This document shows, piece by piece, positions 1-47,658 of a DNA stretch of 64,000 nucleotides. The notes beneath the pieces were generated by a model. The model saw nothing but the letters and a program-made list of their open reading frames with translations. It was not told the origin of the DNA and ran no database searches. The translations under genes and the position numbers were made by a program. The first letter of the stretch is position 1. Each line of letters begins with the position of its first letter. This stretch comes from Candidatus Micrarchaeota archaeon (GTDB taxonomy: Archaea; Iainarchaeota; Iainarchaeia; Iainarchaeales; JAGVWC01), in contig JAZDJR010000029.1 in NCBI GenBank assembly GCA_043803815.1, positions 11,632 through 75,631 on the forward strand, in the 5' to 3' direction.

Positions 1-15
1 TTTTGTCCCGGTTCT

Positions 16-1842
16 TCACGTTTTCGCTTCCAGAATCGCCTTGATTCTTCGGATTCCCGCGGCCGAGTTTTCTTCTTTTAAGATTTTGAAATGCCCGAGT
101 TCTTTGGTATTGGAAACGTGGGGGCCTCCGCAGATTTCCCGCGAAAACACTTCCTTGGTTTTCGGATTCCATACGCTGTACACCTTTACGGTATCGCCGT
201 ATTTTTCTCCGAACTCCGCCATGGCGCCAAGTTCTTTTGCTTTTTCAATCGGCAAAATTTCCATTTTGACTTCAAGGCCGTCCGCGATTTTTTTGTTCAC
301 CAAATCTTCAACCGCTTTGACCTGCTCGAGGGTCATTTTGGACGGATTGGGAAAATCAAATCGCAATCTTTCTTTGGTAATATTGCTTCCCCTTTGGTGT
401 ACGTGTTCTCCCAAAACTTTTCGCAAAGCCGCGTTCAAGAGATGCGTTGCGGTGTGCAGGCGGGTAACTTCGATGGAATGGTCCGCAAGTCCGCCGGAAA
501 ACCGCTGTTCCGCGCCTTTTTGCGAAAGCTTCTGATGTTTCTGTAACCGTTTTTCAAAGTCCTGCGAATCCACTGATAGTCCCTGTTCTTCCGCGATTTC
601 GACGGTCATTTCAAGCGGAAAGCCAAAGGACTGGTACAGGTCAAAAACGATTTTCGAATCCAATCGCTTCAAATTATTTTTTTTGTGCAGTTCAATCTGC
701 TGGTTCAGCAAAGCAGTCCCTTTTTCGAGCGTTTGCCGAAAGCGCGTTTCCTCTTTTTCGAGTTCTTCCAAAACGCGGCCTGAATTCTTTTTAAGTTCGG
801 GATAAATTTTTGCAAAGCGTTTAAGAACGGTTTTGGCTATTGGACAGCAAAAATTGTTTTCGATTCCAAGCATCTTTCCGTGGCGAACCGCGCGGCGGAT
901 TAACCTTCGGAGAACGTATCCCTGGTCGGTGTTCGAGGGCAAAACCGCGTGCTCGTCCCCCAAAATGAACACCACGGAGCGGATGTGGTCTGTTACGATT
1001 CTTTGCGAGCGCAAGGCGGCGGAACCTTTGGTTTTGGAAATTTTTTGCACCATTTCAAAAGTCGGTTTCAAAAGGTCGGTTTCGTACACGGAATCCTTTT
1101 TCTCCAGAATCGCAACCGTGCGTTCCAGTCCCATTCCCGTGTCCACGTTTTTTTGCTTCAACAATTCATACTGTCCACCCGCGTTTTTGTTGTACTGCAT
1201 GAACACGTCGTTCCAGATTTCAACCATTCTTTCCTTGGCGCAAGCGTCCAAAAATTTTTCAGTTGGGGACTTTCCTTTCAATTCTCCAACGTTTTTTCCA
1301 GAATCGTAGAACATTTCCGAATCCGGTCCGCAGGGACCGGTGTGGCCCGCGGGTCCCCACCAGTTGTCGGCCTTGGGCAAAAAATGAATCCGTTCTTTTG
1401 GGATTCCGACCGTTTCCCAAACCTTGGCGCTTTCCAAATCGCGCGGCGCGTCCGAATCCCCCGTAAAACAGGTCACGTGAATCCGGTTCTTGTCAAGGCC
1501 AAGCCATTTTTTGCCAGTCAAAAATTCAAAGCTCATTTCCACGGCTTCTTTTTTGAAATAATCCCCCAAACTCCAGTTCCCCAGCATTTCAAAAAAAGTC
1601 AGGTGCCATTGGTCGCCGACCGACTCGATATCTCCCGTGCGGATGCATTTTTGGAAATTCGCCAGGCACTTTCCGGCCGGATGCGTTTCCCCCATCAGAA
1701 AAGGAATTAACGGATGCATGCCCGCGGTCGTGAACAAAACCGTAGGGTCGTTTTCCGGAATCAAAGACGCGCTTGGAATAATCGCGTGTTTTTTTTCGCG
1801 GAAAAAATCCAGGTATTTTTGCCGCAAATCGTTTGATTGCAT
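16..1842 (-). CDS. alaS: Alanine--tRNA ligase (short form: aminoacylation + editing domains, no C-Ala domain)
   Basis: LFTTAGM, QKCIR, FFEMLGNWS, EIWNDVFMQY, DTGMGLER motifs; editing motifs HTATH and CGGPHV; 608 aa. Confidence 0.97.
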   Translation of the reverse strand: MQSNDLRQKYLDFFREKKHAIIPSASLIPENDPTVLFTTAGMHPLIPFLMGETHPAGKCLANFQKCIRTGDIESVGDQWHLTFFEMLGNWSLGDYFKKEAVEMSFEFLTGKKWLGLDKNRIHVTCFTGDSDAPRDLESAKVWETVGIPKERIHFLPKADNWWGPAGHTGPCGPDSEMFYDSGKNVGELKGKSPTEKFLDACAKERMVEIWNDVFMQYNKNAGGQYELLKQKNVDTGMGLERTVAILEKKDSVYETDLLKPTFEMVQKISKTKGSAALRSQRIVTDHIRSVVFILGDEHAVLPSNTDQGYVLRRLIRRAVRHGKMLGIENNFCCPIAKTVLKRFAKIYPELKKNSGRVLEELEKEETRFRQTLEKGTALLNQQIELHKKNNLKRLDSKIVFDLYQSFGFPLEMTVEIAEEQGLSVDSQDFEKRLQKHQKLSQKGAEQRFSGGLADHSIEVTRLHTATHLLNAALRKVLGEHVHQRGSNITKERLRFDFPNPSKMTLEQVKAVEDLVNKKIADGLEVKMEILPIEKAKELGAMAEFGEKYGDTVKVYSVWNPKTKEVFSREICGGPHVSNTKELGHFKILKEENSAAGIRRIKAILEAKT

Positions 1843-1880
1843 AGGAAAAAAACCTTGAAAATGCCTTAAAAACAGGGGGG

Positions 1881-3566
1881 TTAGTTTTTCTGGATCTCGA
1901 TTTTTTGGACACCGTCAATCTGATTTAAACGGTCCACCAGCTTTTGGATTTTTTGGTTAGAATACGCGGGAATGTTGAACTGCAAAAGGCCCGTCCGGTG
2001 ATTGGAAGGATTGCTTAAAAACGCCGCAAGATTGATTTTTTCTTTGGAAAACGCGCTTGTAGTCTGAAGCAGGCTTCCGATGCGGTCCGAAATCCATACT
2101 TTGACATCCACGCTGCGCTGCTTTTGAAACCGTTTTTTGCTCAAGACCGCCTCGATGTGCTTTTTGGTTGCGATTGTTTTGGCGAGGGAAAGCCATTGAT
2201 GGTTGGCCTGCACGATTTTGGAGGGAACAATTTCGACGATATCGCCCGACGACAAGAGGTGGTGCAATGGAACAAAATGGCCGTTGACTTTGGCGCGCCA
2301 GGTGTGCCTTCCCAAAATGGGGTTGATTTTAAACGCAAAATCAATCGGCGTCGAGCCATACTGCAATTCGATGATGTCTCCTTTCGGAGTGAACACAAAC
2401 ACATTGATGGGCAAAACATCCAATGTCAAAAGCTCCATAAATTCGTCTGTTTCGGAAACAAACTCGGGCAATTTGAACAGCTTGTTCAGTTTTTTGAGCT
2501 GCTTGTTAAAACCGCCGTATGATTTTTTTTCCGAGTCTGTTATCGCGACAAATCCTTTTCTGTTGACTTCGCACATTTTGCGGGTGGCAATATACACTTT
2601 AATTGGCCTGCCGTTTTCGCCAAGAACCGTGGTGTGCAATGCGCGATACAGGTTCATGTTAGGCATGGCAATGTAATCCTTGAACTTGTTGGGAACCGGC
2701 GGATACGCCAGATGAATGTCCCCCAGCATGTCGTAGCATTCGCGGTTGGTATTCACTTCAACGTTTAAAACTGCGCAATCGTACAACTCCGAAATTGGCT
2801 TTCCCGTTCGCTTAAGCTTTGAATAAACCGAAAAAATGCTTTTTTTGTAAACAAAAAAATCGGCCTTGATTTTGGATTTGGAACGCAGGCGACGGATAAC
2901 CTGTTCAATCGAACGAATCACGGGTTTTCGATGCTCTTCGATTTTTTGCCTGAGTTTGGAAAACTTTTTGGGGTCCACAAACCGAAACGCCAAATCCTCC
3001 AGTTCGTGCATGACATCGTGCATGCCGAGCTTGTGCGCCAAAGGAACATATACCTGCAATGTTTCCGCGGCGATTCGAATCCGCTTTTCTTTTGGAAGAT
3101 GCTGCAAGGTGCGCAAATTATGCAGTTTGTCCGCAAGCTTAATCACCATGACGCGCAAATCGTAGGAAGCCGCAAGCATCATTCGCTGAATGTTTTTGGC
3201 ATGCTTAAAACTCTCGTGGCCTTTTCGGCTGACAATATCCAATTTTGTTACCCCCAAAACCAAATCGGTTATGGTCGGCCCGAATTCTTTTTTCAAATCG
3301 CTTTCCGTCACGTTCGTATCTTCAATCACGTCATGCAATAAAGCCGCGGCCACGCAATCCGGGTCTGCGCCCATTTCCGCCAAAATAAAAGCCACATTCG
3401 CGGGATGAATCCAATACGGCTCATCGGATGCGCGTTTTTGATTTCCATGAGCCTTGATTCCAAAAGCAAGCGCTTTGGACACCTTTTCAATGCGGGCTTT
3501 CGGGTGCTTTTTTTTAAGCAATAAAACAAGCTTTTTTTTGAAAAACGACGGCGATGCCTTGGACAT
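1881..3566 (-). CDS. Long RelA/SpoT homologue (HD hydrolase + degenerate synthetase + TGS + ACT-like)
   Basis: HGNQKRASDEPYWIHP, LLHDVIEDT, IKLADKLHNLRTL; KDYIA..YRALHTTV; TGS motif VFTPKGD..TPIDFAF. Confidence 0.92.
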   Translation of the reverse strand: MSKASPSFFKKKLVLLLKKKHPKARIEKVSKALAFGIKAHGNQKRASDEPYWIHPANVAFILAEMGADPDCVAAALLHDVIEDTNVTESDLKKEFGPTITDLVLGVTKLDIVSRKGHESFKHAKNIQRMMLAASYDLRVMVIKLADKLHNLRTLQHLPKEKRIRIAAETLQVYVPLAHKLGMHDVMHELEDLAFRFVDPKKFSKLRQKIEEHRKPVIRSIEQVIRRLRSKSKIKADFFVYKKSIFSVYSKLKRTGKPISELYDCAVLNVEVNTNRECYDMLGDIHLAYPPVPNKFKDYIAMPNMNLYRALHTTVLGENGRPIKVYIATRKMCEVNRKGFVAITDSEKKSYGGFNKQLKKLNKLFKLPEFVSETDEFMELLTLDVLPINVFVFTPKGDIIELQYGSTPIDFAFKINPILGRHTWRAKVNGHFVPLHHLLSSGDIVEIVPSKIVQANHQWLSLAKTIATKKHIEAVLSKKRFQKQRSVDVKVWISDRIGSLLQTTSAFSKEKINLAAFLSNPSNHRTGLLQFNIPAYSNQKIQKLVDRLNQIDGVQKIEIQKN

Positions 3567-3637
3567 TATTATTTCATTGTCGGAATCTGTATTTATTCAT
3601 TTGCCAAAAAACGCGGTTTAATCGTGCGAATCGGGTT

Positions 3638-3664
3638 TTACATTTCTTCCAAAACCAAAAAATC
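3638..3664 (-). repeat. Displaced copy of the argS 3' end (reads DFLVLEEM*)
   Basis: ttacatttcttccaaaac at 3638-3655 is identical to 6335-6352, the last codons and stop of argS. Confidence 0.85.
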
Positions 3665-3693
3665 CGGTTGCCAAACGGTCTAAACCGCGCTAA

Positions 3694-3757
3694 AATTATA
3701 CCCGATTCAGCCCGCGAAGCTCCGTGGTGAGGGAACCGGCGGGAGTAGCGGACGGTT
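3694..3757. repeat. GC-rich imperfect repeat, copy 1 (copy 2 at 4905-4950)
   Basis: aattatac..cagcccg..ggcgggagtagcggacggtt versus aattatac..cagcccg..ggcggaagtacggacggtt. Confidence 0.7.
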
Positions 3758-3767
3758 CCTATTTTTT

Positions 3768-4421
3768 TTATTCCGATAATTTTGCGTTTTGGTCTCCGAC
3801 AACGACTTGGTTAATTTTGTTCCAATAAAGCAAGGGCAAAATATATTCCGCTTCGGGGGGTGCCGCGCTTCCCAAAAACTTTTTGATTTCCTCGTCAAAA
3901 ACCGCTTTTGAACGCTGGTTCGCTTCCAAAGCAGTATTCCCGCTTAACAAGGAATGAATCACCTGGTTGGATGCCTTAAAAAACGGCCTTGCAAACTTGT
4001 CATTTAACGGAATCGCACTATTGGCGTGGTCAATCCAAAACGCAAAATCGTCCTCATAACCGATAAAAGCGCGACATCCGTTTTGAACGGCGCTCGGCCC
4101 AAGACCGTCCGCGGACCGGCACGAACGCGAAAAAACAATTTTGTTTTTTAATAATCCGTCGTTTCGGTCTTTTTCAACCAACACTTCATTATTATGCCCA
4201 AAAACCGCGTTTTCGCTTCCGTGACCATTGAACAGCACCAGTTCGGGCAAATGGTTTTTCAGCATAGCTTCAACGGTTTTAGCGCTGGCTTTTTCGCGAT
4301 GGCAATCTAATACTTGAAACCCTTTTTGTACGGCTTTGTCCAGCAGTTCTTTGGACCAAACCGACAAATAAAAAACCGTATCCTCGTGTTCGGGACGCGA
4401 AACCAAAAAATGCATAATCAC
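3768..4421 (-). CDS. Hypothetical protein, putative clan CD (caspase/CHAT/gingipain-like) cysteine protease fold
   Basis: 217 aa; LVLFNGHG and IVFSRSC resemble the His-Gly / Ser-Cys catalytic strands. Confidence 0.55.
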   Translation of the reverse strand: MIMHFLVSRPEHEDTVFYLSVWSKELLDKAVQKGFQVLDCHREKASAKTVEAMLKNHLPELVLFNGHGSENAVFGHNNEVLVEKDRNDGLLKNKIVFSRSCRSADGLGPSAVQNGCRAFIGYEDDFAFWIDHANSAIPLNDKFARPFFKASNQVIHSLLSGNTALEANQRSKAVFDEEIKKFLGSAAPPEAEYILPLLYWNKINQVVVGDQNAKLSE

Positions 4422-4618
4422 GAATACTCTTTTGCCAAATTCCGAAGGTACGCCATTTGAATCTCGACAAACTTTTCGCCTAACGCGCTTCCTTTTTTTA
4501 TTCCATCCAGTAACTCTTCCTTTGAAACCGCGCCGCGGCTTCCCAGCGACAATTTCATGTTGGAAGGCATGGTTTGCAATCGCGCCAGCACCAGTTTTTT
4601 TTCCTCTTCACTGCTCAT
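4418..4618 (-). CDS. Small hypothetical protein
   Basis: 66 aa; ORF overlaps the downstream ORF by 4 bp. Confidence 0.75.
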   Translation of the reverse strand: MSSEEEKKLVLARLQTMPSNMKLSLGSRGAVSKEELLDGIKKGSALGEKFVEIQMAYLRNLAKEYS

Positions 4619-4627
4619 AACTTTTAC

Positions 4628-4813
4628 CTACAGAATTTTGAGTTCTTCCAATTTTTTCAAAATTTCGCCGCCTTTTTTTGTCCCAGCATTGATTTCCAAA
4701 AACGCGACATTCCACGAAACCGGCTCGTTTCCCAAAACCAAAATAACCTCTTTTCGAATATTAAGCGGCAAATTCGCATACAACCCCAAAAAACGCGCCT
4801 TCAAATCAACCAT
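4628..4813 (-). CDS. Small hypothetical protein
   Basis: 61 aa; first gene of a tight three-gene unit. Confidence 0.75.
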   Translation of the reverse strand: MVDLKARFLGLYANLPLNIRKEVILVLGNEPVSWNVAFLEINAGTKKGGEILKKLEELKIL

Positions 4814-4904
4814 ACCAATCTTAATGCAAAATCCAATATTTTAAACTATTCAAACCCGAAAAACCTTAAAAACCGGTTCAGGCCCGATTGCCGGTGAAAA
4901 AACC

Positions 4905-4950
4905 AATTATACGAAAAACAGCCCGTGTTGCGGCGGAAGTACGGACGGTT
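4905..4950. repeat. GC-rich imperfect repeat, copy 2
   Basis: Matches 3694-3757. Confidence 0.7.
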
Positions 4951-4989
4951 GATTAACCGAAAAAAATCGGAAACCAAACTGCTGTTGAA

Positions 4990-6177
4990 TCAGTTTTCTT
5001 TTTCGCCGAGCAATAGTTTTCTTCCCCATTCGGGTAATGATTGGTTTGAGTCGTGTTCATTCAGGAGTCTCTGACCGAGTGGTGTTAGTTTGGCTACTGT
5101 GGTGTCGCGTGCGCCGCCGTGGCGTTTTGTCATTCCGCTGATTCTTTCTGTATGGATTTGCAGCAGGCCCTTTTCTTGCAGTTCCTTAAATGCGGGGTCA
5201 AGTGTTTTATGGTCATAGTGGGATTCGGGGTTTCCTGAATGATAACTTTTTCCACCCTTTTTAACAGTGAATTGTTTGTATAGTTGAGCGGCATGTTTTT
5301 CGCCGGTTCTTAAATTTGTCAGAATATACCATGCCGCGTTTGGGTAGTCCATGCGGGGATTTTTGTGTGCGGCGTGAGTCCAAACGCTGATAGCTCCGCC
5401 TTTTGGCCCGATAGATAGAGGCATTTTTTTTACTAAACCTGCAGTTTCCAATAATTGCAATGTCACATTAATGACGTTTTTGTGTTTTACATCTTCCCAG
5501 TTTAACCCAAGTTTTTTTACTAACTGCAAGCTGGTCATGGAAAATGGCACAAAGTGGTCTGTTTCCGGTTCCCAAACGGCGGATTCGAATAGCGTTCTTT
5601 CTAATTCGGGTAACAATAACTGCTTGTTGGGTAAGCGGAATTTGATTGCTTTGTAGACATCGGTTGGGTGACCAATAAGGGACATGATTCTTTTGGAATA
5701 ATGATTTTGGAGCAGTATCCTGCTGTATTGCCGCAGTTTTTCAGAACTCAATCCAGCTTCGAGAAGAATGGGGGCGAGTACATGGAATACGTGGGGGTCC
5801 CGTCCGCCTAATGCCTTTCTCAGGGTAATGCTAGTTTGTAGAACCTCTGCCTTAGCTTCCAAGCGTTGCAATTTTTTAGGCGAAGCGCGGGCACCTGAAC
5901 TCATTTCAGCCAAGACTTTTTCTAATGCCCGTTCTTCCAATGGCGTTTCCGGAACGCTGCCGACTTGGTGCAATCTAATTCGGGGTCCAAAACGAGTTCG
6001 TCTCGTAACAATTTTTGCCAAGCGCTCTTCAGGACCCGCTAACCGGACAAAATCAGGTCTTACTGAACCCTTGCCTTTCCGCCAGTCTCTTACTTGCCAG
6101 TGTTCAGCCTGTGATAAGGGGCGGGTTGGAACCCATTTTCGTTTGACTTTGCCCACAATCGGTCTTGTCGAAACCAT
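4990..6177 (-). CDS. Hypothetical basic protein, possibly with winged-helix repeats
   Basis: 395 aa ORF; wHTH-like endings LQLLETAGLVKK and FKELQEKGLLQI..AKLTPLG. Confidence 0.7.
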   Translation of the reverse strand: MVSTRPIVGKVKRKWVPTRPLSQAEHWQVRDWRKGKGSVRPDFVRLAGPEERLAKIVTRRTRFGPRIRLHQVGSVPETPLEERALEKVLAEMSSGARASPKKLQRLEAKAEVLQTSITLRKALGGRDPHVFHVLAPILLEAGLSSEKLRQYSRILLQNHYSKRIMSLIGHPTDVYKAIKFRLPNKQLLLPELERTLFESAVWEPETDHFVPFSMTSLQLVKKLGLNWEDVKHKNVINVTLQLLETAGLVKKMPLSIGPKGGAISVWTHAAHKNPRMDYPNAAWYILTNLRTGEKHAAQLYKQFTVKKGGKSYHSGNPESHYDHKTLDPAFKELQEKGLLQIHTERISGMTKRHGGARDTTVAKLTPLGQRLLNEHDSNQSLPEWGRKLLLGEKEN

Positions 6178-15546: not shown

Positions 15547-15669
15547 ATTGTAGGCGGGCGAATTCCCCCAAATAGTTCGAATCAGTTCCCTGTTTTTGGC
15601 TGGCGTTTTCTGCTGAAAAAGTATTACGCATAAAGTGGTATAAAGCGATTTCGATGGGGTTCCTTAAAC
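15547..15669. repeat. Degenerate att site plus element-end arm (copy of 17771-17893)
   Basis: attgtaggcgggcgaatt matches the tRNA-Leu att at 15/18 and is followed by ~100 bp similar to 17789-17893. Confidence 0.88.
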
Positions 15670-17730: not shown

Positions 17731-17771
17731 TGTTTACAATTTATAAACATAATGTTTACAAAAAGTAAACA
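17731..17771. promoter_or_regulatory. Two tandem palindromic operators upstream of the MNT-HEPN operon
   Basis: TGTTTAcaatttaTAAACA (17731-17749) and TGTTTACaaaaaGTAAACA (17753-17771). Confidence 0.75.
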
Positions 17772-17926
17772 TTGCAGGCGGGCAGATTTACCCCAATAGT
17801 TTGAATCAGTTTCCGGTTTTGGTTGACTTTTTCTGCTGAAACACCATTATGCATAAAGTAGTATAAAGCGTTTTCGATGGTGTTCCCTAAAACTATTTTT
17901 GCCCGTGATCCGGTTCTCTGTTTTTT

Positions 17927-38300: not shown

Positions 38301-38605
38301 AGTAAATCGTAACAAAATGCATGAAATGTGCTAGCTGTACTCTCCTGTGCTGAAGGTAAAACCTTCTCGACATCTTCCTTCATTTTGCGCGCAGCCTCGC
38401 GAGAAAAAGTAAGCATTAATAAACGTCCAGGTATAATCCCTTTTTCCTTTATCAAAAATGCAGCCTTGGCAGTAATCATCATCGTCTTACCCGTGCCTGC
38501 GCCAGCAATGACTAAAACAGAGCCGTTAGTCGATTCAACAGCTTGGCATTGTTCGGGATTTAGCTGTTTGCCGGTTTCCGTTTGGAACCATTCAAAAAAA
38601 GTCAT
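35372..38605 (-). CDS. UvrD/PcrA-type SF1 helicase fused to C-terminal RecB-like PD-(D/E)XK nuclease
   Basis: AGAGTGKT, VDEFQDTN, GDPNQAIY, NYRS, HAAKGLEF, YVACTRAK; C-terminal CPKKY, GKIDRID..IDYKTG, CEKCGYKLYC. Confidence 0.93.
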   Translation of the reverse strand: MTFFEWFQTETGKQLNPEQCQAVESTNGSVLVIAGAGTGKTMMITAKAAFLIKEKGIIPGRLLMLTFSREAARKMKEDVEKVLPSAQESTASTFHAFCYDLLVSHSTQTGVTEGAQIVDEIDAAILLHRRLGIPAYNAKFYVSSIEKAKDLNLTPAQYESFLTDLKRQVDELTDGSDLAEYVHRARLRLQTLHLERATGETKLEKKELRDFLDLFAEYEDYSNFLNAWTAYEQIKEEKNLLDYADLNKRVLDWAAEGGEEELAKMFDYVIVDEFQDTNRQQFDLLKVLCGEQKKITVVGDPNQAIYAFRGAYANNLEAFEKEFNAQTLALKQNYRSTNTILRTAHRLVQNNYSDPTRAIQLESAFQTEGTKVKLLQTIDPKEQARRVLEEIETVHSNSTPYNEIAILFRSYSSAQEIQNTLDRRGIPYQSIGGTSFFRCPEIRTSLAYLYVIANMEKPTFAADPAWWKLLHYKYGLSNADSHILAHAAKYDSIQHVLFSKPPTGLSSDGQEKLARLSAKIEELRKNKNKTISNLLLDIYESTGLSRWFSYESTHENRQSLLNLRYLHDLTIKFQDIHGSELFEFIEYLETLGEMGEELEAQQLATDEGIILLSCHAAKGLEFDHVFILDLVKDKFPLTRGGREPLIPDALDERYAPILKEKSPKEAKEEIKELKKTEKQKEERRLAYVACTRAKKNLNLCFAKTYSDNEREPSIFLREAGYGLTETHADLELITDNEVKARDILKDTDLERQKAQIKKLLIANIDTDPDQAFHHLLTYTTLTGKPINPNSDQIQKANQEAQQILEKTKNENTNSQTFNPADTPFSFTALSTYDECPKKYELAHILRMPTRQNDNQGDGALKFGEYIHRALEIAVQQKITSREQLQTIAHQTAQHPDYSRIDHARAKLIFDTFWARQADRLQNNISVEQGFQFKLDGYYFKGKIDRIDKLNPQTNEIEIIDYKTGQEPDKTKRARQLLLYALAVQNDQTLKAKGYTVKHLTYELLEQEKPRTYNLSPEGDMTEIGGRTDPAKLQEIQAELLEIAQKASQDYQKSHFEPSQDDKTCEKCGYKLYCPKGD

Positions 38606-39336
38606 ACGGTCCCTCTAAAATAATTTTCTAACTTTTTAATTGTTCCATATTTTTTGTAGTTATTATTGAACCAAATATCTGAATCTTTGATACTTTTCGC
38701 GTAGTCCCATTTTTTCGTGTGAGTTTGCTGGATTATTTTTGCTTCTTTTGGAAATTCAAAAAAAGATATACCTCTTTTGACGTTTGTAAATCGTTTATAG
38801 ATTTTTTTATTTAATCTCAAGACCGATGCTGGAACCCAAAAAATACGCTTTATTTTCCAGCTCGACTTTTTAAACTCGGGATAATCTTCTCTTCCATGAA
38901 GAGTAATCAAAGCGGCAAAATCAAATTTTTCATCCCCTTTTTTATTTTTTGTACCAAACCTCCAACCCCATTGATAAATTCTGCGTTTGAATTTCCACTT
39001 TTTATTTCTCTTGATATGCATAAAGTCCTGGTTTGGATAGACTCCCTCATTTTTCAAAGTTGAAGTTTTTACTTCAATTCTGACTTCCTTTCCTTGGAAC
39101 TGCAATAGTAAGTCATATCTGTGATGGCCACTTTTGTAATACACTTTGGCTTTTGGAAATTCACGCAAAAGGAGCTGTGCCACTTGGAATTCCCCATATG
39201 TGCCGATAATCGAATTGGCAATTTTTAGACCGGTTTTATCAGAATAATTCCTGATTTGGCTAATCAATTTGAGCCCTTTTTTAATTATCTGTTTATTCAG
39301 CGGTTTGGGTGCTTCCTTTCTGTTCTTTCTACGCAT
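38602..39336 (-). CDS. Putative PD-(D/E)XK endonuclease
   Basis: GTYGE..YDLL..RIEVKTS; very basic; ATGA overlap with the helicase. Confidence 0.7.
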   Translation of the reverse strand: MRRKNRKEAPKPLNKQIIKKGLKLISQIRNYSDKTGLKIANSIIGTYGEFQVAQLLLREFPKAKVYYKSGHHRYDLLLQFQGKEVRIEVKTSTLKNEGVYPNQDFMHIKRNKKWKFKRRIYQWGWRFGTKNKKGDEKFDFAALITLHGREDYPEFKKSSWKIKRIFWVPASVLRLNKKIYKRFTNVKRGISFFEFPKEAKIIQQTHTKKWDYAKSIKDSDIWFNNNYKKYGTIKKLENYFRGTV

Positions 39337-39409
39337 CGCTGTTTTCCCACCTGTAATTTATCAAGTTCAGTATCATTTTTCTTCATTCGTTGGTATTTTT
39401 TTCACTTTG

Positions 39410-40795
39410 TTACATCTCAAGTGTTTGTAAAGCTATTTTTCCAATTATTTCTGTTAAAGCGTCTTCGAATTCCCGTGATACATCGGATGTCCCGCTTGTG
39501 GCGTGGGTTGCTTCGTGCAATAGCACGCCCGCGTATGTTTGCAGGTCTTTTAGTTGGTCGCGTTGGATTATTATGTTTGGGTAGTCCCATAGTCCGGCTG
39601 GTTGGAATCCGTTTGCTTCCAGCCGCATGGTTTCGGTTATTAGGATTTTTTTTACGCTAGCGGGTTTTCCGCCGATTAGGTCAAGTAATTGCTTCGTTTT
39701 TGAAAATATTTCTTGTTCTTTTTGGTTAAGTTGTTTTTCGTCGATGAATTTGAATTCGAAGCTTTCGTTGAAGTTTTGGACATATTGGCCCAGATCAATC
39801 ATTGGGTTGCCTTGGATGTCCTTGACTCCTTGAATTTTTTCTTTAACATTGTCCGGTATCACAATTACCTTGTAACCGTCTTTTTTTGCTTGGTCGATTA
39901 GTTCTTTTTTTTCAATGAGTTCGAACGAGGTTGCGAATACAACTTTTTCAAAGCTGTTAAGCAGTTTGCAGGCGTGGACGGAAACTTCAACTCTGCTTAC
40001 TTCATCGTGCATTTCCCCTGCTCCGAACTGTTGGAGGTCTTTGACCAACTGTTCCGCGACGGGCTTGGTTTGGGATTGTAGCAGTATTTCCATGATGCGG
40101 TCGGAATAAGCGGTGCGGCCTACGTTTGAGCGTTCTCGGTTTAATGCTTTTCGCAATTTTGCAGTCATTGATGTAATATTGTATGAAAAAAGGTAATTTT
40201 CTTCAGTCGCTACTTTGAGGCCCGTAATGTAAATGATTGCTTGTTTGTCTGTTTTTTCGTAAATTTCGCCTAGTTTTGTTTTTTCGAGGATTTTGGATTG
40301 GGAAAATTTGAGAAAATTGCTTTTGGCAGCATCCATGTCTTTTTTACTGCAGCCTTTTAGGATGATTTCTGTTCCTTGAAAGTTTTTGTCAGCGCTGGAT
40401 TCGTCGATGATAGCATGGAGTGTTTTGACGTCTTTAAACCCGTGTTTTTCGAATTTTTGCGTTGTGATGCTTCCATGGCGGGAAATGATTTTGATTTGGA
40501 TTCCATAGCGGTCAAATGTTGCAAATGCATCTTTGAGGCCGACTCCGAATTTACCGATGACTTTTTCCGGGTTATTTAGCTTTTCTTGGTTTTCGTTTTG
40601 GGTTAAGTGTTTGTAATGAACGCCGCGTCCATAGTCTCGGATATGCCAACCGTCTTTGTTTTCAAAGATGTCGATTTCTTTAGTATTGGATAGTATTTGT
40701 TCATCCATAGCGTTGGAAATGACTTCTCGTATTCCGTCAGCTACGGTCCAGTTTTCAAGGACCTTTTCAATGTTTAAATCGAATTTATTTTCCAT
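39410..40795 (-). CDS. GHKL-family ATPase with C-terminal HExxH domain
   Basis: REVISNAMD, IRDYGRG, IGKFGVGLK, GT boxes; LLHEATHA. Confidence 0.85.
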   Translation of the reverse strand: MENKFDLNIEKVLENWTVADGIREVISNAMDEQILSNTKEIDIFENKDGWHIRDYGRGVHYKHLTQNENQEKLNNPEKVIGKFGVGLKDAFATFDRYGIQIKIISRHGSITTQKFEKHGFKDVKTLHAIIDESSADKNFQGTEIILKGCSKKDMDAAKSNFLKFSQSKILEKTKLGEIYEKTDKQAIIYITGLKVATEENYLFSYNITSMTAKLRKALNRERSNVGRTAYSDRIMEILLQSQTKPVAEQLVKDLQQFGAGEMHDEVSRVEVSVHACKLLNSFEKVVFATSFELIEKKELIDQAKKDGYKVIVIPDNVKEKIQGVKDIQGNPMIDLGQYVQNFNESFEFKFIDEKQLNQKEQEIFSKTKQLLDLIGGKPASVKKILITETMRLEANGFQPAGLWDYPNIIIQRDQLKDLQTYAGVLLHEATHATSGTSDVSREFEDALTEIIGKIALQTLEM

Positions 40796-40806: not shown

Positions 40807-41400
40807 CTATAATCGTGCTATTTTTCCGGCATCGGTTAATTTGTGTCCGTTTTCGGTTTCCTCGATGAATCCTTTGTCTTTGAGTTCTTTGATTGCGCGG
40901 TAGACCATGGCGGGGCTCAATTTAGTCTCGTCTGCGAGTTTGGCGATTTGGGTGGAATCTTCGATTCGTTCCAATACCTTTTGTTGGCTGTCGGTCAAGT
41001 CGAATGATAATATGGGGATTGTAATTATTTCATTTTTTTCTTCGGTCACGTATATTATTTTTTTTATTTTTGTACTTCGTTGATAGCCGGCAAAAAGGAC
41101 TCCAAAGCTTTGAGTGCGGCGACCGGTTGATACATTTAGGTAAATTTCGTCCCCGTTCGGAACCATATCAATCATATCTGTTACCGCGTGTGCAACGGAA
41201 ACGATTTCGTATACGGGTACTTTTTTTTCTTTTATTTCGATTATTTTTTCATAGTGTTCTTTAATTGTTTTTATTGCGGCTTGCTGTTTGTCGTCGGTTT
41301 CAGTGCTTGAGAGCAGGTAAACCCGATCAATGGAAAAGCGATTGATGGCCAAAACAATTGAATCAGTCCGGTATACGGGAGTAATTAGCACTCTTGCCAT
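40807..41400 (-). CDS. CARF (Csa3-like) + winged-HTH transcriptional regulator
   Basis: IDRVYLL, IYLNVSTGRR CARF motifs; KLADETKLSPAMVYRAIKELKDKG..LTDAGK. Confidence 0.8.
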   Translation of the reverse strand: MARVLITPVYRTDSIVLAINRFSIDRVYLLSSTETDDKQQAAIKTIKEHYEKIIEIKEKKVPVYEIVSVAHAVTDMIDMVPNGDEIYLNVSTGRRTQSFGVLFAGYQRSTKIKKIIYVTEEKNEIITIPILSFDLTDSQQKVLERIEDSTQIAKLADETKLSPAMVYRAIKELKDKGFIEETENGHKLTDAGKIARL

Positions 41401-41444
41401 GATGAACTAGTAACTGTAACCGTTTATAAATATTTGGAATTGTA

Positions 41445-41475
41445 TACTGAAAAAGAGGTTTTCTACTGAAAAAGA
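41445..41475. promoter_or_regulatory. 12-bp direct repeat in the divergent promoter region (candidate operator)
   Basis: tactgaaaaaga at 41445-41456 and 41464-41475. Confidence 0.5.
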
Positions 41476-41529
41476 TACTTTTTTAATGATTTTGATACTC
41501 CTTCTTGCTAAAATCAAGGGGTTGAATGG

Positions 41530-41805
41530 ATGAGCACCTATAGTAGAGGTATTGCAGCGGAAAATAAAATCAAAGCAAAGCTTCAGAATAAAGGCTGGCT
41601 GGTGCGCCAATCGCCTGGGAGCAGGGGTCCGTTTGACCTTTATGCCTTGAAAGGTGGACGTAAAATGCTGGTCCAGGTTAAGTCTGGGACAGCCCATTTG
41701 ACTACTCAAGGTCGTTCGGATTTACGTTGGGTAGCCAAAAGAAAAGGGGCCACGGCGGTAAGCATGCACGTGCGGGGTCGACAAATCCGTTCAAGGTTTG
41801 TTTAA
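41530..41805 (+). CDS. Hjc-like small PD-(D/E)XK nuclease
   Basis: RGIAAE..L..GWLV.QSPGS.GPFDLYA..LVQVKS. Confidence 0.8.
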   Translation: MSTYSRGIAAENKIKAKLQNKGWLVRQSPGSRGPFDLYALKGGRKMLVQVKSGTAHLTTQGRSDLRWVAKRKGATAVSMHVRGRQIRSRFV

Positions 41806-41818
41806 GTGGTGATATTAA

Positions 41819-42202
41819 ATGCCAAATCGAAATGAGCATATTGTCCTTGGTTGCCTTCTTGCTGGCGGCGCTTATTTGCTATTTAAACGAGTTGTTAATG
41901 AAAAACCGACTTGGGGCGGATTGATAACCTCGGTGGCTGCCGGTGGTGCAATTGGACTTCTTCCAGACTTATTAGAGCCTGCTACTAACCCAACTCACAG
42001 AAATTTTTTTCATAGCGCTCTTGCTCTTGGAACCGGGACGTATGGCACTTATAAAGTTCTTCAAAACCCGCTCTTAAATCAAAATCAAAAGCAGTTTCTC
42101 TTGGCATTGTTTGCGGGATATGCCAGTCATTTACTAGCTGATGCAACAACCGCGCGCAGTATTCCACTCCTTGGAGTTGGTGAAGGATATGGGGAATACT
42201 AG
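41819..42202 (+). CDS. YdjM-like membrane metal-dependent hydrolase
   Basis: H..LPD..HRNFFHS..SHLLAD..IPL motifs with TM helices. Confidence 0.85.
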   Translation: MPNRNEHIVLGCLLAGGAYLLFKRVVNEKPTWGGLITSVAAGGAIGLLPDLLEPATNPTHRNFFHSALALGTGTYGTYKVLQNPLLNQNQKQFLLALFAGYASHLLADATTARSIPLLGVGEGYGEY

Positions 42203-42665
42203 TCGCGGAGAGTCCCGAAGCGGGAGTTCGTATAGTCGAACAAGTGGCTTTGGCTTGTCAGGACAAACAATTGCCATTACTCGAAGAACACTTAAAAATG
42301 AAACGCCTACCGAAGCGGGGACTTTTGTTGCAGGCGTAATTCTCCAGGGAACCGGAATTGACCTTCTTTTATCAGTTTATCAGGCCGTGGTTTATTCTTA
42401 TGATAAATACCAAAAGTTCGAAAATCGGTCCTGGGTAGTTGGGGAAGAACAAGCGCTTCAAGAGATTTCAGTCGAAGTTGGAAAAGATGCCTTAAAAAGC
42501 ACAGTAAAAAAAATGGCTTCTCAAGCTATCGTTAATGCGGTTGTAACTGAGTTGGAGGAAAAAAAGATTATTCCGCCTGAATTGAAAAACCGGACAGAAG
42601 AAATAGTCGATGACCTCATTGATTTGGGCATTGATAAATTGGAGAAACAATTTTTAGAGGAGTGA
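42189..42665 (+). CDS. Hypothetical protein with Gly/Ser-rich N-terminus (possible QatB-like partner)
   Basis: Likely start MGNTSRGESRSGSS after ggtgaagga; overlaps the upstream stop. Confidence 0.65.
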   Translation: MGNTSRGESRSGSSYSRTSGFGLSGQTIAITRRTLKNETPTEAGTFVAGVILQGTGIDLLLSVYQAVVYSYDKYQKFENRSWVVGEEQALQEISVEVGKDALKSTVKKMASQAIVNAVVTELEEKKIIPPELKNRTEEIVDDLIDLGIDKLEKQFLEE

Positions 42666-42669
42666 AAAA

Positions 42670-42954
42670 ATGGGTCAAATAAACACGGATGATTTATTGT
42701 TCAAGGCCACGTATGCCACTCTTATCAAACAAGCGCAGCATATGTTGAACACTAAAGAGTTTGCTGAACGATTCAAGCTAAAAACCCGTGAAGAAAAAAT
42801 TGAAATAAAAAAGAAAATGCTTGAAAAGCTAAAAGGGTACGCCGTTGAAATCGTGCAACAGTTGCCTGAAAATGTTGAAGGGGGCCAGGATATCCAAAAG
42901 CTGAAGCCAAAGCTGATAAAAATAATGCAAGGGTGTCTTGATGGCCAAGCTTGA
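42670..42954 (+). CDS. Small helical hypothetical protein
   Basis: 94 aa starting MGQ after gaggag; overlaps the QueC-like start. Confidence 0.7.
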   Translation: MGQINTDDLLFKATYATLIKQAQHMLNTKEFAERFKLKTREEKIEIKKKMLEKLKGYAVEIVQQLPENVEGGQDIQKLKPKLIKIMQGCLDGQA

Positions 42955-44155
42955 ACACTATTTTACCCGTTTTTCGGAGATAAGCAAGTTTTACAAAGAA
43001 AGGAAAGGAAAATACGCGGCTGAAAAAGTTATTCCGCCGAGGCAACGGGACCTCACTAAATTTGTAGAAAGGGTAAACTTTCTGGAAAGGGACGATTTTC
43101 AAAATGAAATGGAATTTGAGTGTATTGATTATGATTTTTGGGAAAAACAAAAACCATTACTAAAGAGCTTAATTGAAGATATTGTTGAACGGCCCGTCGA
43201 GTTAAACCTTAAAAAAATCCAAGATCCTTTTAAAAAATCAAAATGGGGCGTCCAACCTGCCGGAAAAGCACCCCTCGTTCTTTTTTCCGGCGGACTGGAC
43301 AGCTTTCTTTCAGCGTATGAAAATCCAAACGCAGTCCTGGTGCATGTAAATATTGCCAAGGGAATGCACCCGTATGCAAAAAAATCAAGAGAATTTTTAC
43401 CTTTAACCCAACCCTACTTTGAGATATCATTTACAGCTTACAAGCCGCCAGCAAAGGCGGGCGGTGTGTCCAGTTGTCGCGGTCTAACCTTCATCTGCCT
43501 AACTTCACTGCTAATTCCTGCATTTAATGCCGACCGAATAATAATCGGGGAAAATGGAATCCTAATCCATAACCCGCCGTTATTCGAAGGCGCCAAAATG
43601 ACACGAGGGCTGCGTCCAACAATTACCTCAAAAATTGAACAACTGCTTTGCCAAGTCTATGAAAAAAAGATTAATTTGGAGTTTCCTAATAACAGCCTCA
43701 CAAAAACCCAAGTAATCGAAAAAATCATGAAAACCCCCCCTTGGCCAGAAATACTGCCAAAAACAAGCTCCTGCTTTCATCAGCAACCGCATAGGGGAAT
43801 AAAGAAAAAAATTCCCATGTGTGGCGTATGTTACGCCTGTATTGTTCGTCAACTCGGAACCCTTGCGCTCGGAGTAGACGAGTCAAAAAACTATTTAAAA
43901 AATCCTTTCAAAGAATGGGATTCAAAAGGAAACGGGCTAATGTTTGTGATTGACTTATGCCGCCTAATTAAACTCTACAAAAAAGGGCTGCTTTCAGTAA
44001 ACCAAGCCAATATCATCCTGCAGAACAAGGCTCTTTTTGAGCGCTATTTTGACGAAGTCCTTAAGGGTCTCAAGGAGGCACAAGCGCGAAAACTAACAGG
44101 AGACTTCGTTGATAATGAAATTGCAGAACTTGCGAAGCTTAGTCCTTTCTGCTGA
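42941..44155 (+). CDS. QueC-like PP-loop enzyme (QatC/Cap9-like)
   Basis: LFSGGLDS, IGENG, TK, TSSC..CGVCYAC zinc site; ~400 aa, longer than canonical QueC. Confidence 0.85.
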   Translation: MAKLEHYFTRFSEISKFYKERKGKYAAEKVIPPRQRDLTKFVERVNFLERDDFQNEMEFECIDYDFWEKQKPLLKSLIEDIVERPVELNLKKIQDPFKKSKWGVQPAGKAPLVLFSGGLDSFLSAYENPNAVLVHVNIAKGMHPYAKKSREFLPLTQPYFEISFTAYKPPAKAGGVSSCRGLTFICLTSLLIPAFNADRIIIGENGILIHNPPLFEGAKMTRGLRPTITSKIEQLLCQVYEKKINLEFPNNSLTKTQVIEKIMKTPPWPEILPKTSSCFHQQPHRGIKKKIPMCGVCYACIVRQLGTLALGVDESKNYLKNPFKEWDSKGNGLMFVIDLCRLIKLYKKGLLSVNQANIILQNKALFERYFDEVLKGLKEAQARKLTGDFVDNEIAELAKLSPFC

Positions 44156-46287: not shown

Positions 46288-47487
46288 TCAAACCACCTCT
46301 TTTTTCAGTTGCGTGGCTTGGGTAATGGCTTCTTGGATGATGTTGGGGTTGGTTTTAGCCATTTCAAGCAATTTCATTACTGCGACCATGGCTTCTTGGT
46401 CTTTTTGGCGCGTCATTTCCACTGAATTGATAGCCTGGGGGGTCAACGGTAGCCAGCATTGTTTACAGTATTGGCTGTTTACGTCGTTGGGTGTTTTGCA
46501 GCGGGGACAGTTTTGTTGTAGTAAAATGATTTCTTTTTTTTCGGGTTTTTTTAAACCGTTTAGCTCCAAAATTGCGTTGTCGACTTGTTTTCCGGACAGG
46601 TGGACGTAGCGTGAGGCCATGTCGCTTCCTTGGGTCCAGCCGAAGTATTCTTTCATTTGGGCTTCAGTCAGGAATTGCGCCATGTAGGTTGCGCGTGAGT
46701 GTCGGAAGTGGTGGGGGTTGACTGGTTTTTTTATTCCCGCGCGTTTGGCGGCGCCGCGGATTACTTTGATGATGTAGGCGTAGACGACTTGCTGGGTTTT
46801 TTTTCGGGTAAGCGTTACCCACAAGGGCGCGTTGGGGTCGTGGTTTTGGGGGTGCTCATTTATCCATTCCAATAAATAGGGTGCGCTGGATACTAGTCGG
46901 ATGCGGCGCATTCCGGTTTTGCCGTCGACCATTACTTGACACCCGAATTCGTCGAATTGCACGTTTTTGAGTTGTAGGCCTCCAATCTCTCCTATTCGGG
47001 CCCCGGATTCCCAGATGCACGAGATAAGTGCTTTGTCGCGTTTGGTGTGTGTGTTTTGGAGCAGGGTTTTTACTTCTTCTTGGTTTAATAGGTCGTCCGG
47101 CAGTCGTTTGTATTTGGATTTGGAACCGCTTTTTATCCAGGCCACGCATTCGGGGTAGGTTCCTTTGTTGAACCACTTGTAAAACACTTTTAGGGTGGCT
47201 CGAAAAGTGGCAATGGATTCTTCGGCATAGTCGCTGGTTTTCATCCAGACCAAGAAGGTTTCCACGTCTTTGGCGGTAATCGTGTCAAAGGGTTTGGGGA
47301 TTTTTTGGCTGAAAAGGCGCAAACAGGATGCTATGCGTAGGATTCGGGGGGTTGAAATGCCGTTTACGGTTTCAAAGTTGTGGAAATCCGTCATCCATTG
47401 CTTGTTTTGGCTTGGAATGTCGGCTTTTTCAATTCGTTCCTGTTCCTTGACTAGGTAGTGGTCGTAGTCGTGTAGGTATTTTCTCAT
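46288..47487 (-). CDS. Tyrosine recombinase/integrase with C-terminal zinc ribbon
   Basis: SGARIGE, GKTG.R, HHFRHSRAT, FGW..SRYVH, CPRC..CKQC; start placed at ATG 47487. Confidence 0.95.
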   Translation of the reverse strand: MRKYLHDYDHYLVKEQERIEKADIPSQNKQWMTDFHNFETVNGISTPRILRIASCLRLFSQKIPKPFDTITAKDVETFLVWMKTSDYAEESIATFRATLKVFYKWFNKGTYPECVAWIKSGSKSKYKRLPDDLLNQEEVKTLLQNTHTKRDKALISCIWESGARIGEIGGLQLKNVQFDEFGCQVMVDGKTGMRRIRLVSSAPYLLEWINEHPQNHDPNAPLWVTLTRKKTQQVVYAYIIKVIRGAAKRAGIKKPVNPHHFRHSRATYMAQFLTEAQMKEYFGWTQGSDMASRYVHLSGKQVDNAILELNGLKKPEKKEIILLQQNCPRCKTPNDVNSQYCKQCWLPLTPQAINSVEMTRQKDQEAMVAVMKLLEMAKTNPNIIQEAITQATQLKKEVV

Positions 47488-47554
47488 CAAATCACGTCTC
47501 CTTTTACCCAACCGAAAACCAATTAAAAGAGACGGATTCAAACAATTTGGTAAT

Positions 47555-47658
47555 TGCAGGCGGGCAGATTCGAACTGCCGAAAGCCACTAAGGCACAAGC
47601 CCATTGACCGTTGATACGGGCCTCAAGCTTGCGAAATTGACCGCTATTCGACGCCTGC
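47555..47658 (-). tRNA. tRNA-Leu(GAG) with 19-nt intron (47602-47620); integration target
   Basis: Acceptor gcaggcg/cgcctgc, anticodon stem caagc/gcttg, long variable arm, canonical BHB (TTGA/TCAA central helix). Confidence 0.93.

Follow-up and report, generated by a model that had tools for sequence, protein, structure and literature searches.

A putative three-gene relative of the QatBC anti-phage module, encoded in the defence island of an integrated element

The locus described here lies in a 64,000-nucleotide (nt) stretch of contig JAZDJR010000029.1 (GenBank assembly GCA_043803815.1; herein referred to as the window), where five same-strand open reading frames (ORFs) occupy positions 41530-44155, the first and third junctions being gaps (13 and 4 nt, respectively) and the second and fourth overlaps of 14 nt each. 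A preliminary description of this DNA had proposed a five-gene defence operon ending in an enlarged QueC-like enzyme, and the ORF list and sequence bear out its structural particulars: the tight coupling of the five genes, the SGGLDS loop and four-cysteine site of the enzyme, and the Met-Gly starts of the two proteins encoded ahead of it. The five genes do not form the conserved unit, however, which consists of the last three (genes A, B and C), found in the same order in 11 of 11 related loci, whereas the first two (g1 and g2) lie outside it. We argue below that this cassette is probably a glycine-tagging defence module related to QatBC, the core pair of the Qat anti-phage system. The features of the locus are as follows:

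42189-42665, plus strand: gene A, partner protein of 158 amino acids (aa), MGNTS start
42670-42954, plus strand: gene B, predicted helical protein of 94 aa, beginning MGQ, between gene A and the enzyme gene
42941-44155, plus strand: gene C, QatC-like PP-loop ATP pyrophosphatase of 404 aa, with SGGLDS at residues 116-121, a Zn site, and N- and C-terminal extensions
41530-41805, plus strand: g1, truncated Hjc-like PD-(D/E)XK protein of 91 aa (Pfam PDDEXK_5), a local addition
41819-42202, plus strand: g2, YdjM-family membrane protein of 127 aa (Pfam YdjM), overlapping the gene A start by 14 nt, a local addition
40807-41400, minus strand: divergent CARF winged helix-turn-helix (wHTH), Csa3-like regulator (PADLOC CARF3, NCBIfam Csa3, Pfam HFX_2341_N)
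41440-41498, no strand assigned: three direct repeats of ~20 nt, a candidate operator, in the 129-nt divergent intergenic region

The enzyme gene ends at 44155 and starts either at TTG 42938 (405 aa) or at ATG 42941 (404 aa), the latter being more likely because the database gene call (P0001) is 404 aa long. Its SGGLDS motif and its four cysteines (C278...C294-G-x-C297-x-x-C300) are invariant in a four-sequence alignment. Pfam recognizes the C-terminal part of QueC alone (25.9 bits), and the best NCBIfam model is QatC (NF041925, 71 bits, model positions 46-394 of 398), the QueC model TIGR00364 giving 12.5 bits against a cut-off of 150.3. PADLOC likewise matches the protein to QatC (2.8e-13), and a Protein Data Bank (PDB) search with a profile of the four sequences returned QatC chains alone (9vlk at 1.1e-11, 9zee at 6.7e-10). 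BLASTP against Escherichia coli QueC (b0444) matched only two short motifs (E > 1), and PHROGs yielded unnamed families and a weak QueC-like match, nothing further. When the AlphaFold2 (AF2) model of gene C (predicted local distance difference test, pLDDT, 63) was compared with known folds by Foldseek, the top pair comprised the QatC chains 9y01_B and 9y02_B (418-420 columns), the best being 9y01_B, from the QatB-QatC complex, at E 1e-7 over 420 columns; QueC 3bl5 (9e-5 over 218 columns) and then Cap9 9nto_B (4.2e-3) ranked below them. At the residue level, 59 columns are conserved in the annotated QatC clade of 28 members; gene C retains 34 of them and E. coli QueC 17. The retained positions are the PP-loop, R180 and F184 (the Arg and Phe positions that bind adenine in QatC), ENG..N..P, T221-R222, P(x)4TK and the Zn cysteines. 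The first member of the invariant QatC Thr pair is therefore present as T221, and the HP of QatC is RP in gene C. By these comparisons of sequence and predicted fold, gene C is a QatC-like enzyme and not a housekeeping QueC, as the preliminary description had supposed.

The enzyme family is rare: a profile search of 1.84 billion cluster representatives matched 5 at E <= 1e-30 and 669 at E <= 1e-10, and the enzyme is missing from all 40 relatives of the host genome that were searched. In a FastTree phylogeny of 148 sequences (22 of 152 listed proteins were left out for length), gene C falls in a seven-member clade (support 1.0) whose sister is a seven-member Methanoregula-type clade (0.999), with a joint support of 1.0. 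Scans of genome contigs with a single enzyme sequence and of viral contigs with the enzyme alignment found no related loci. Those that we compared (n = 11) comprise one from a genome collection, belonging to a Bathyarchaeia metagenome-assembled genome (MAG; L001), and ten metagenome loci (L002-L011), several of which are near-duplicates. In each of the 11, a protein of ~150 aa is followed by one of 92-106 aa and then by the QatC-like enzyme. These A-B-C loci cover the two well-supported enzyme clades as well as a more distant Bathyarchaeia-type locus; the carriers include the small-genome bacterium of the window, methanogen MAGs and the Bathyarchaeia MAG.

Gene A, whose homologues lie directly upstream of gene B and the enzyme gene in all 11 related loci, begins MGNTSRGESRSGSS and encodes an N-terminus reading MGNTSR, a helical body and an acidic C-terminal helix that ends FLEE. 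Its reading frame is open from an in-frame ATG at 42141, inside g2, and the sequence directly preceding the ATG at 42189 is GGTGAAGGA. The family of ~150-aa proteins starts MGSQ[S/N/G/R]R, with M1, G2 and R6 present in every one of 22 aligned sequences; because this type of start is invariant in the family, the start of ORF 42189 can be fixed at the Met-Gly codon, which in most homologues is also the first start after an in-frame stop. The N-terminal glycine on which the preliminary description depended is thus both correctly placed and conserved. Among 14 fetched family proteins, 13 start MGSQ, the exception being the truncated call for the window's own protein (P0171). Both public records of gene A (P0171 and that of the ESM Atlas) have it begin at TTG 42255, 22 codons late, and therefore lack the conserved Met-Gly tail. 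The same type of start-site misannotation was reportedly seen for QatB by Gao et al.

AF2 models gene A (pLDDT 59) as a helical protein whose N-terminus is disordered; the tail is predicted disordered to about residue 24, residues 6-24 being modelled at pLDDT <50 and secondary structure beginning at residue 25 or later. A Foldseek search of the PDB with this poor model gave no match at E <= 0.001, and the ESM Atlas returned only sub-threshold feature matches (<= 0.83) and generic helical matches for genes A and B. A complex prediction of gene A with the enzyme scored 0.00 and, having been run without controls, carries no weight either way. On inspection by eye, gene A proteins of the Methanoregula type contain a hydrophobic stretch of ~30 residues split by SSNP or TNP (e.g., P0158, about residues 43-72), resembling a helical hairpin in its sequence; the hydrophobicity of this stretch is lower in the window and Bathyarchaeia types.

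Gene B is found in all 11 related loci, invariably between gene A and the enzyme gene, and matches no family in Pfam, NCBIfam or PADLOC. An alignment of nine sequences has just two invariant positions, M1 and I46, and Gly2 is present in a single sequence, the window protein; the MGQ start is thus not conserved, and its glycine is probably there by chance. We also considered the C-terminal glycine of gene B as a ubiquitin-like acyl donor and rejected it, because the bases of its codons also belong to the start and ribosome-binding region of gene C and because gene B is predicted to be helical.

Defence or restriction genes are found in five of the six distinct contexts with visible flanks. Gabija GajA/GajB lies directly downstream of the cassette in one locus (L006), another (L003) has a type I restriction-modification (RM) system together with a related CARF-wHTH gene divergently upstream, and in a third (L004) a HATPase_c_3 protein and a phosphoesterase are paired beside the cassette. 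Neither a KAP NTPase nor a TatD match was found among the five operon proteins or the scanned neighbours with Pfam, PADLOC and NCBIfam, in line with the earlier proposal that the QatA ATPase, the QatD nuclease and any cyclase are absent.

In the window, the cassette lies within a longer defence island. An exact 18-nt direct repeat (17771-17788 and 47553-47570; a third copy at 15547-15564 is 83% identical) flanks ~29.8 kb of lower-GC DNA, where we estimate the chance expectation for such repeats at ~0.01 in 40 kb, and the bracketed stretch ends at an integrase gene (46288-47604, minus strand). Its genes encode a TraG-like ATPase, an ArdC/IrrE-like protein, an MmeI-type RM system, an SMC-like ATPase with a phosphoesterase, UvrD, a PD-(D/E)XK protein, a HATPase_c_3 protein, the CARF-wHTH regulator, the operon, a Schlafen/AlbA_2 protein and the integrase. 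The repeats probably mark the att sites of an integrated element that bears the whole island and may be conjugative.

Two further observations concern this element. On the minus strand at 47553-47657, a tRNA-like stretch of ~104 nt has an 8-bp acceptor-type stem and a GGCAG/UUCGAAU/CUGCC T-arm, its 3' end is the repeated 18-mer and its fold z-score is -2.2; it was called by neither ARAGORN nor Rfam and may be an unusual or disrupted tRNA that served as the integration target. Also on the minus strand (38602-40795), a 461-aa HATPase_c_3/sacsin-like ATPase and a 244-aa weak PD-(D/E)XK protein lie downstream of a 1077-aa UvrD-type helicase and may be a separate, uncharacterised defence pair.

The host genome (1.08 Mb, 85.6% complete) encodes RelA/SpoT, bacterial alanyl- and arginyl-tRNA synthetases (AlaRS and ArgRS) and a Tgt (TIGR00430, 411 bits), and judged by its gene sequences the host is a bacterium. 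Gene C is its single PF06508 match. No match to PTPS/QueD or to GTP cyclohydrolase I or IB (FolE, FolE2) was found in this 85.6%-complete assembly, and a QueE-like match on another contig proved to be NrdG. The preliminary description had noted that queD, queE, folE and tgt are missing from the window, which agrees with these genome-wide searches, the sole tRNA-guanine transglycosylase (TGT) being the bacterial Tgt on contig C17. Because no QueC, QueD, QueE or FolE was found in the genome, endogenous 7-carboxy-7-deazaguanine (CDG) is an unlikely acyl donor for the enzyme.

The closest characterized relatives are the Qat proteins. According to three structural papers from 2026, QatB and QatC form a 1:1 complex that is sufficient for defence against some phages, the loop at the N-terminus of QatB enters the QatC active site, and the QatB substitution G2D abolishes defence; all three agree that QatC modifies the N-terminal glycine of QatB, the attached group not being identified (PMC13279940, PMC13376578, PMC13639016). 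CDG reportedly does not stimulate QatC, the reaction was not reconstituted, and the acyl substrate is described as unknown (PMC13279940, PMC13376578). Other PF06508 clusters are assigned metabolic chemistry in PMC13329287, whose authors left the archaeal, methanogen-rich clusters 7, 8 and 10 unanalysed; the clusters or supplements of that study might already include the enzyme family described here. Among the titles and abstracts that we searched on QatC/QueC-like enzymes, the N-terminal glycine and archaeal defence, none describes a three-gene variant.

As in QatBC (QatC 9vlk/9vll and 9zee/9zef; complex 9y01/9y02), the cassette encodes an enlarged PP-loop enzyme of QueC fold with N- and C-terminal extensions, SGGxDS and a Cys4 Zn site, and gene C, like QatC, is without the Tyr/Asp residues by which QueC and Cap9 recognize CDG. 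Directly upstream, as for QatB, lies a gene for a helical protein with an unstructured tail and a Met-Gly-(Ser/Thr/Asn) start, and the defence-island setting is also that of Qat. Unlike Qat, the partner is ~150 aa long and starts MGSQxR or MGNTSR (in the QatB proteins of 14 of 14 loci the start is MGTS and the length 234-296 aa), an extra gene of ~95 aa stands between partner and enzyme, and there is no QatA KAP NTPase or QatD TatD nuclease. Of the QatB sample, six proteins come from plasmid Qat operons and eight from loci on viral contigs; a scan of viral contigs with a QatC alignment had found 17 loci, of which these eight supplied QatB, whereas a scan with a single QatC (P0064) found none. 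One further set, on a Bradyrhizobium plasmid (L022, positions 1-5685), comprises a protein of >1000 aa, a 274-aa MGSGSFGGG protein with a Gly-rich tail, a 446-aa QatC-like enzyme and an ASCH-domain protein, and its sequences suggest another QatC-like variant; similar Gly-rich tails occur in the Bathyarchaeia-type gene A partners.

In type IV CBASS (antiphage signalling based on cyclic oligonucleotides), the QueC-family enzyme Cap9 is paired with CdnD (9nto) and is proposed or shown to acylate the partner's Gly2 amine after Met removal (10.1101/2025.04.06.647259; PMC13279940), as we suggest for gene C. Cap9, however, is ~185 aa long (gene C has 404 aa), retains the QueC CDG-binding motifs and has as its partner a CD-NTase (a nucleotidyltransferase resembling cGAS or DncV) that works with Cap10 (PMC13329287). 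The window operon has no CD-NTase or TGT-like gene, and the fold match of Cap9 to gene C is weaker than that of QatC (E 4.2e-3 vs 1e-7). With QueC (3bl5, E. coli b0444) the enzyme shares the Rossmann-like PP-loop core and the Zn-cysteine cluster, and it differs from QueC in its failure to reach the family cut-off and in the absence of queD, queE and folE from the genome searched.

The reading that we favour, at a probability of roughly 0.55, is that the three-gene cassette is related to the QatBC core and serves in defence by tagging a glycine, as QatBC would. It is supported by the rank of QatC, which scores best among the families of both NCBIfam and PADLOC and is the sole PDB sequence match and the top full-length fold match, ahead of QueC and Cap9; it draws on the sequences, models and genomic context of this family. 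Gene A and QatB clearly share the Met-Gly tail and the position beside the enzyme, and the gene A product is the proposed Gly2-modified substrate. Under this hypothesis, gene C would use ATP to adenylate a carboxylate substrate, the gene A product would lose its initiator Met, and the flexible tail would bind in the gene C active site so as to present the Gly2 alpha-amine there for acylation; the tagged protein, together with the small helical product of gene B, would then trigger or execute defence. Inside the integrated element, the cassette would have acquired g1, g2 and the divergent CARF-wHTH gene as local accessories.

Several results weigh against this interpretation. The 71 bits scored by gene C are far under the QatC equivalog cut-off of 280 (that test gives 294-467 bits for the annotated-type QatCs P0024, P0036 and P0064), and the annotated QatC clade (n = 28, support 0.844) includes neither the clade of gene C nor its Methanoregula-type sister, which jointly have 14 members. 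Before the PP-loop, gene C retains only 2 of the 11 conserved columns of the QatC N-terminal extension, whose motifs are thus lost, and the second invariant QatC Thr is G223 (Thr in half of the 14-member clade). The models are of low confidence (pLDDT 59 for gene A, 63 for gene C), and the neighbours of the cassette in one locus (L011) include no recognisable defence gene. Profile-profile comparison by hhalign also gave low probabilities, with QatB against gene A at 20% for six QatB sequences and 3.9% for 14, and QatB against gene B at 1.9% and 6.3%, respectively.

These hhalign values bear as well on the idea that genes A and B are a split QatB, the cassette then being a very divergent true QatBC pair. 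The combined length of the two proteins (158 + 94 aa) is near that of QatB, and the weak matches are roughly collinear: with the six-sequence profile gene A spans QatB 133-208 and gene B 220-241, and with the 14-sequence profile they span 80-238 and 177-269 and overlap. The gene A score of 23.0 against the 14-sequence profile also exceeds all 20 column-shuffled controls (maximum 15.1). Probabilities of 1.9-20%, however, are no evidence of homology; no operon protein matches QatB in PADLOC or NCBIfam, no A-B fusion exists among 18 gene A relatives (82-277 aa), nor were longer gene B relatives found (the latter being weak evidence), and the poor gene A model found no Foldseek match at the threshold given above. 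These profiles do not establish that the bodies of genes A and B are homologous to QatB, and we regard a split QatB as quite unlikely. Less probable still is that the enzyme acts on a small molecule or nucleic acid instead of protein A, with A and B as unrelated structural or regulatory partners and a function outside defence such as maintenance of the element. The chemistry of QatC is itself unresolved, no CDG-dependent activity being reported in PMC13279940 and PMC13376578, and the metabolic PF06508 clusters and the locus lacking defence neighbours (L011) also speak for such a scheme. An invariant Met-Gly followed by a variable, predicted disordered tail is nevertheless hard to explain in a bystander, and the strict A-B-C order across distant clades and the defence or restriction genes in five of six contexts argue in the same direction.

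The five-gene system of the preliminary description, with the Hjc-like and/or YdjM-like protein as effectors that are triggered by the glycine-tagged partner and take the place of QatD and QatA, deserves separate consideration, as the packing of all five genes and the 14-nt overlap of g2 with gene A are real. Promoter-like and terminator-like signals inside the operon do not rise clearly above shuffled controls (7 vs 4.2 +/- 2.3, and 7 vs 3.8 +/- 1.8), and in the closest relative with DNA (L002) an unidentifiable upstream ORF likewise ends on the gene A start codon (TAATG). Yet tblastn with g1 and g2 across the 11 related loci found no homologue of either (best E 0.84 and 0.18), and because they have no counterpart there we treat both as local additions. 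The g1 protein appears truncated, matching positions 1-57 of the 138 in Pfam PDDEXK_5 at 26.5 bits (cut-off 26.1) and scoring 16.6 bits, below cut-off, against Pfam Hjc. In its alignment to the Hjc-type structure 2eo0 (E 0.0058), E11, D36 and K51 fall on acidic or lysine positions, and Q49 stands opposite a Glu that we take to be catalytic in Hjc. The g2 protein matches Pfam YdjM (43.3 bits, E 3.7e-11, positions 1-116 of 176) and has no sequence match in the PDB. Published QatBC alone is, moreover, enough against some phages (PMC13279940). Effector status for g1 and g2 is hence unlikely, and a local accessory role in the window operon is possible.

The divergent CARF-wHTH gene possibly regulates the operon. 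Its product scores 202 bits with PADLOC CARF3 and 85 bits with NCBIfam Csa3 (cut-off 60.2), and the repeats between it and g1, spaced 19-20 nt, are a candidate operator that the regulator would bind. Because Cas10 (Csm1 or Cmr2) was not found in the genome, this CARF regulator has no obvious source of cyclic oligoadenylate.

A bolder form of the QatBC-like hypothesis, which we put forward tentatively and consider somewhat doubtful, is that the cassette represents a distinct glycine-tagging immune module of bacteria and archaea whose acyl donor is not a 7-deazaguanine, and in which gene B would fill the adaptor or sensor role of the larger body of QatB. As no QueC, QueD, QueE or FolE was found in the 1.08-Mb host, the enzyme would, on this proposal, adenylate a common cellular or phage-derived carboxylate. 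If that is correct, the combination of a small system and a metabolically poor host could be the easiest route to the first substrate of the QatC branch.

Most likely, the cassette, which is recognized here from its genes alone, is an undescribed, slimmed-down relative of the Qat anti-phage system that would tag the first glycine of its partner. Current defence finders would miss it, because the family is not a system in PADLOC v2. Comparison with Qat separates what has persisted over deep divergence, namely the PP-loop, Zn site and first Thr of the enzyme and the Met-Gly start with an Arg at position 6, from what is lost: QatA, QatD, the body of QatB and the N-terminal motifs of QatC. For the question of which acyl group QatC transfers, the cassette offers a much smaller natural variant, with a partner of ~150 aa and an extra protein of ~95 aa, in a host whose apparent lack of a CDG pathway narrows the candidate acyl donors.

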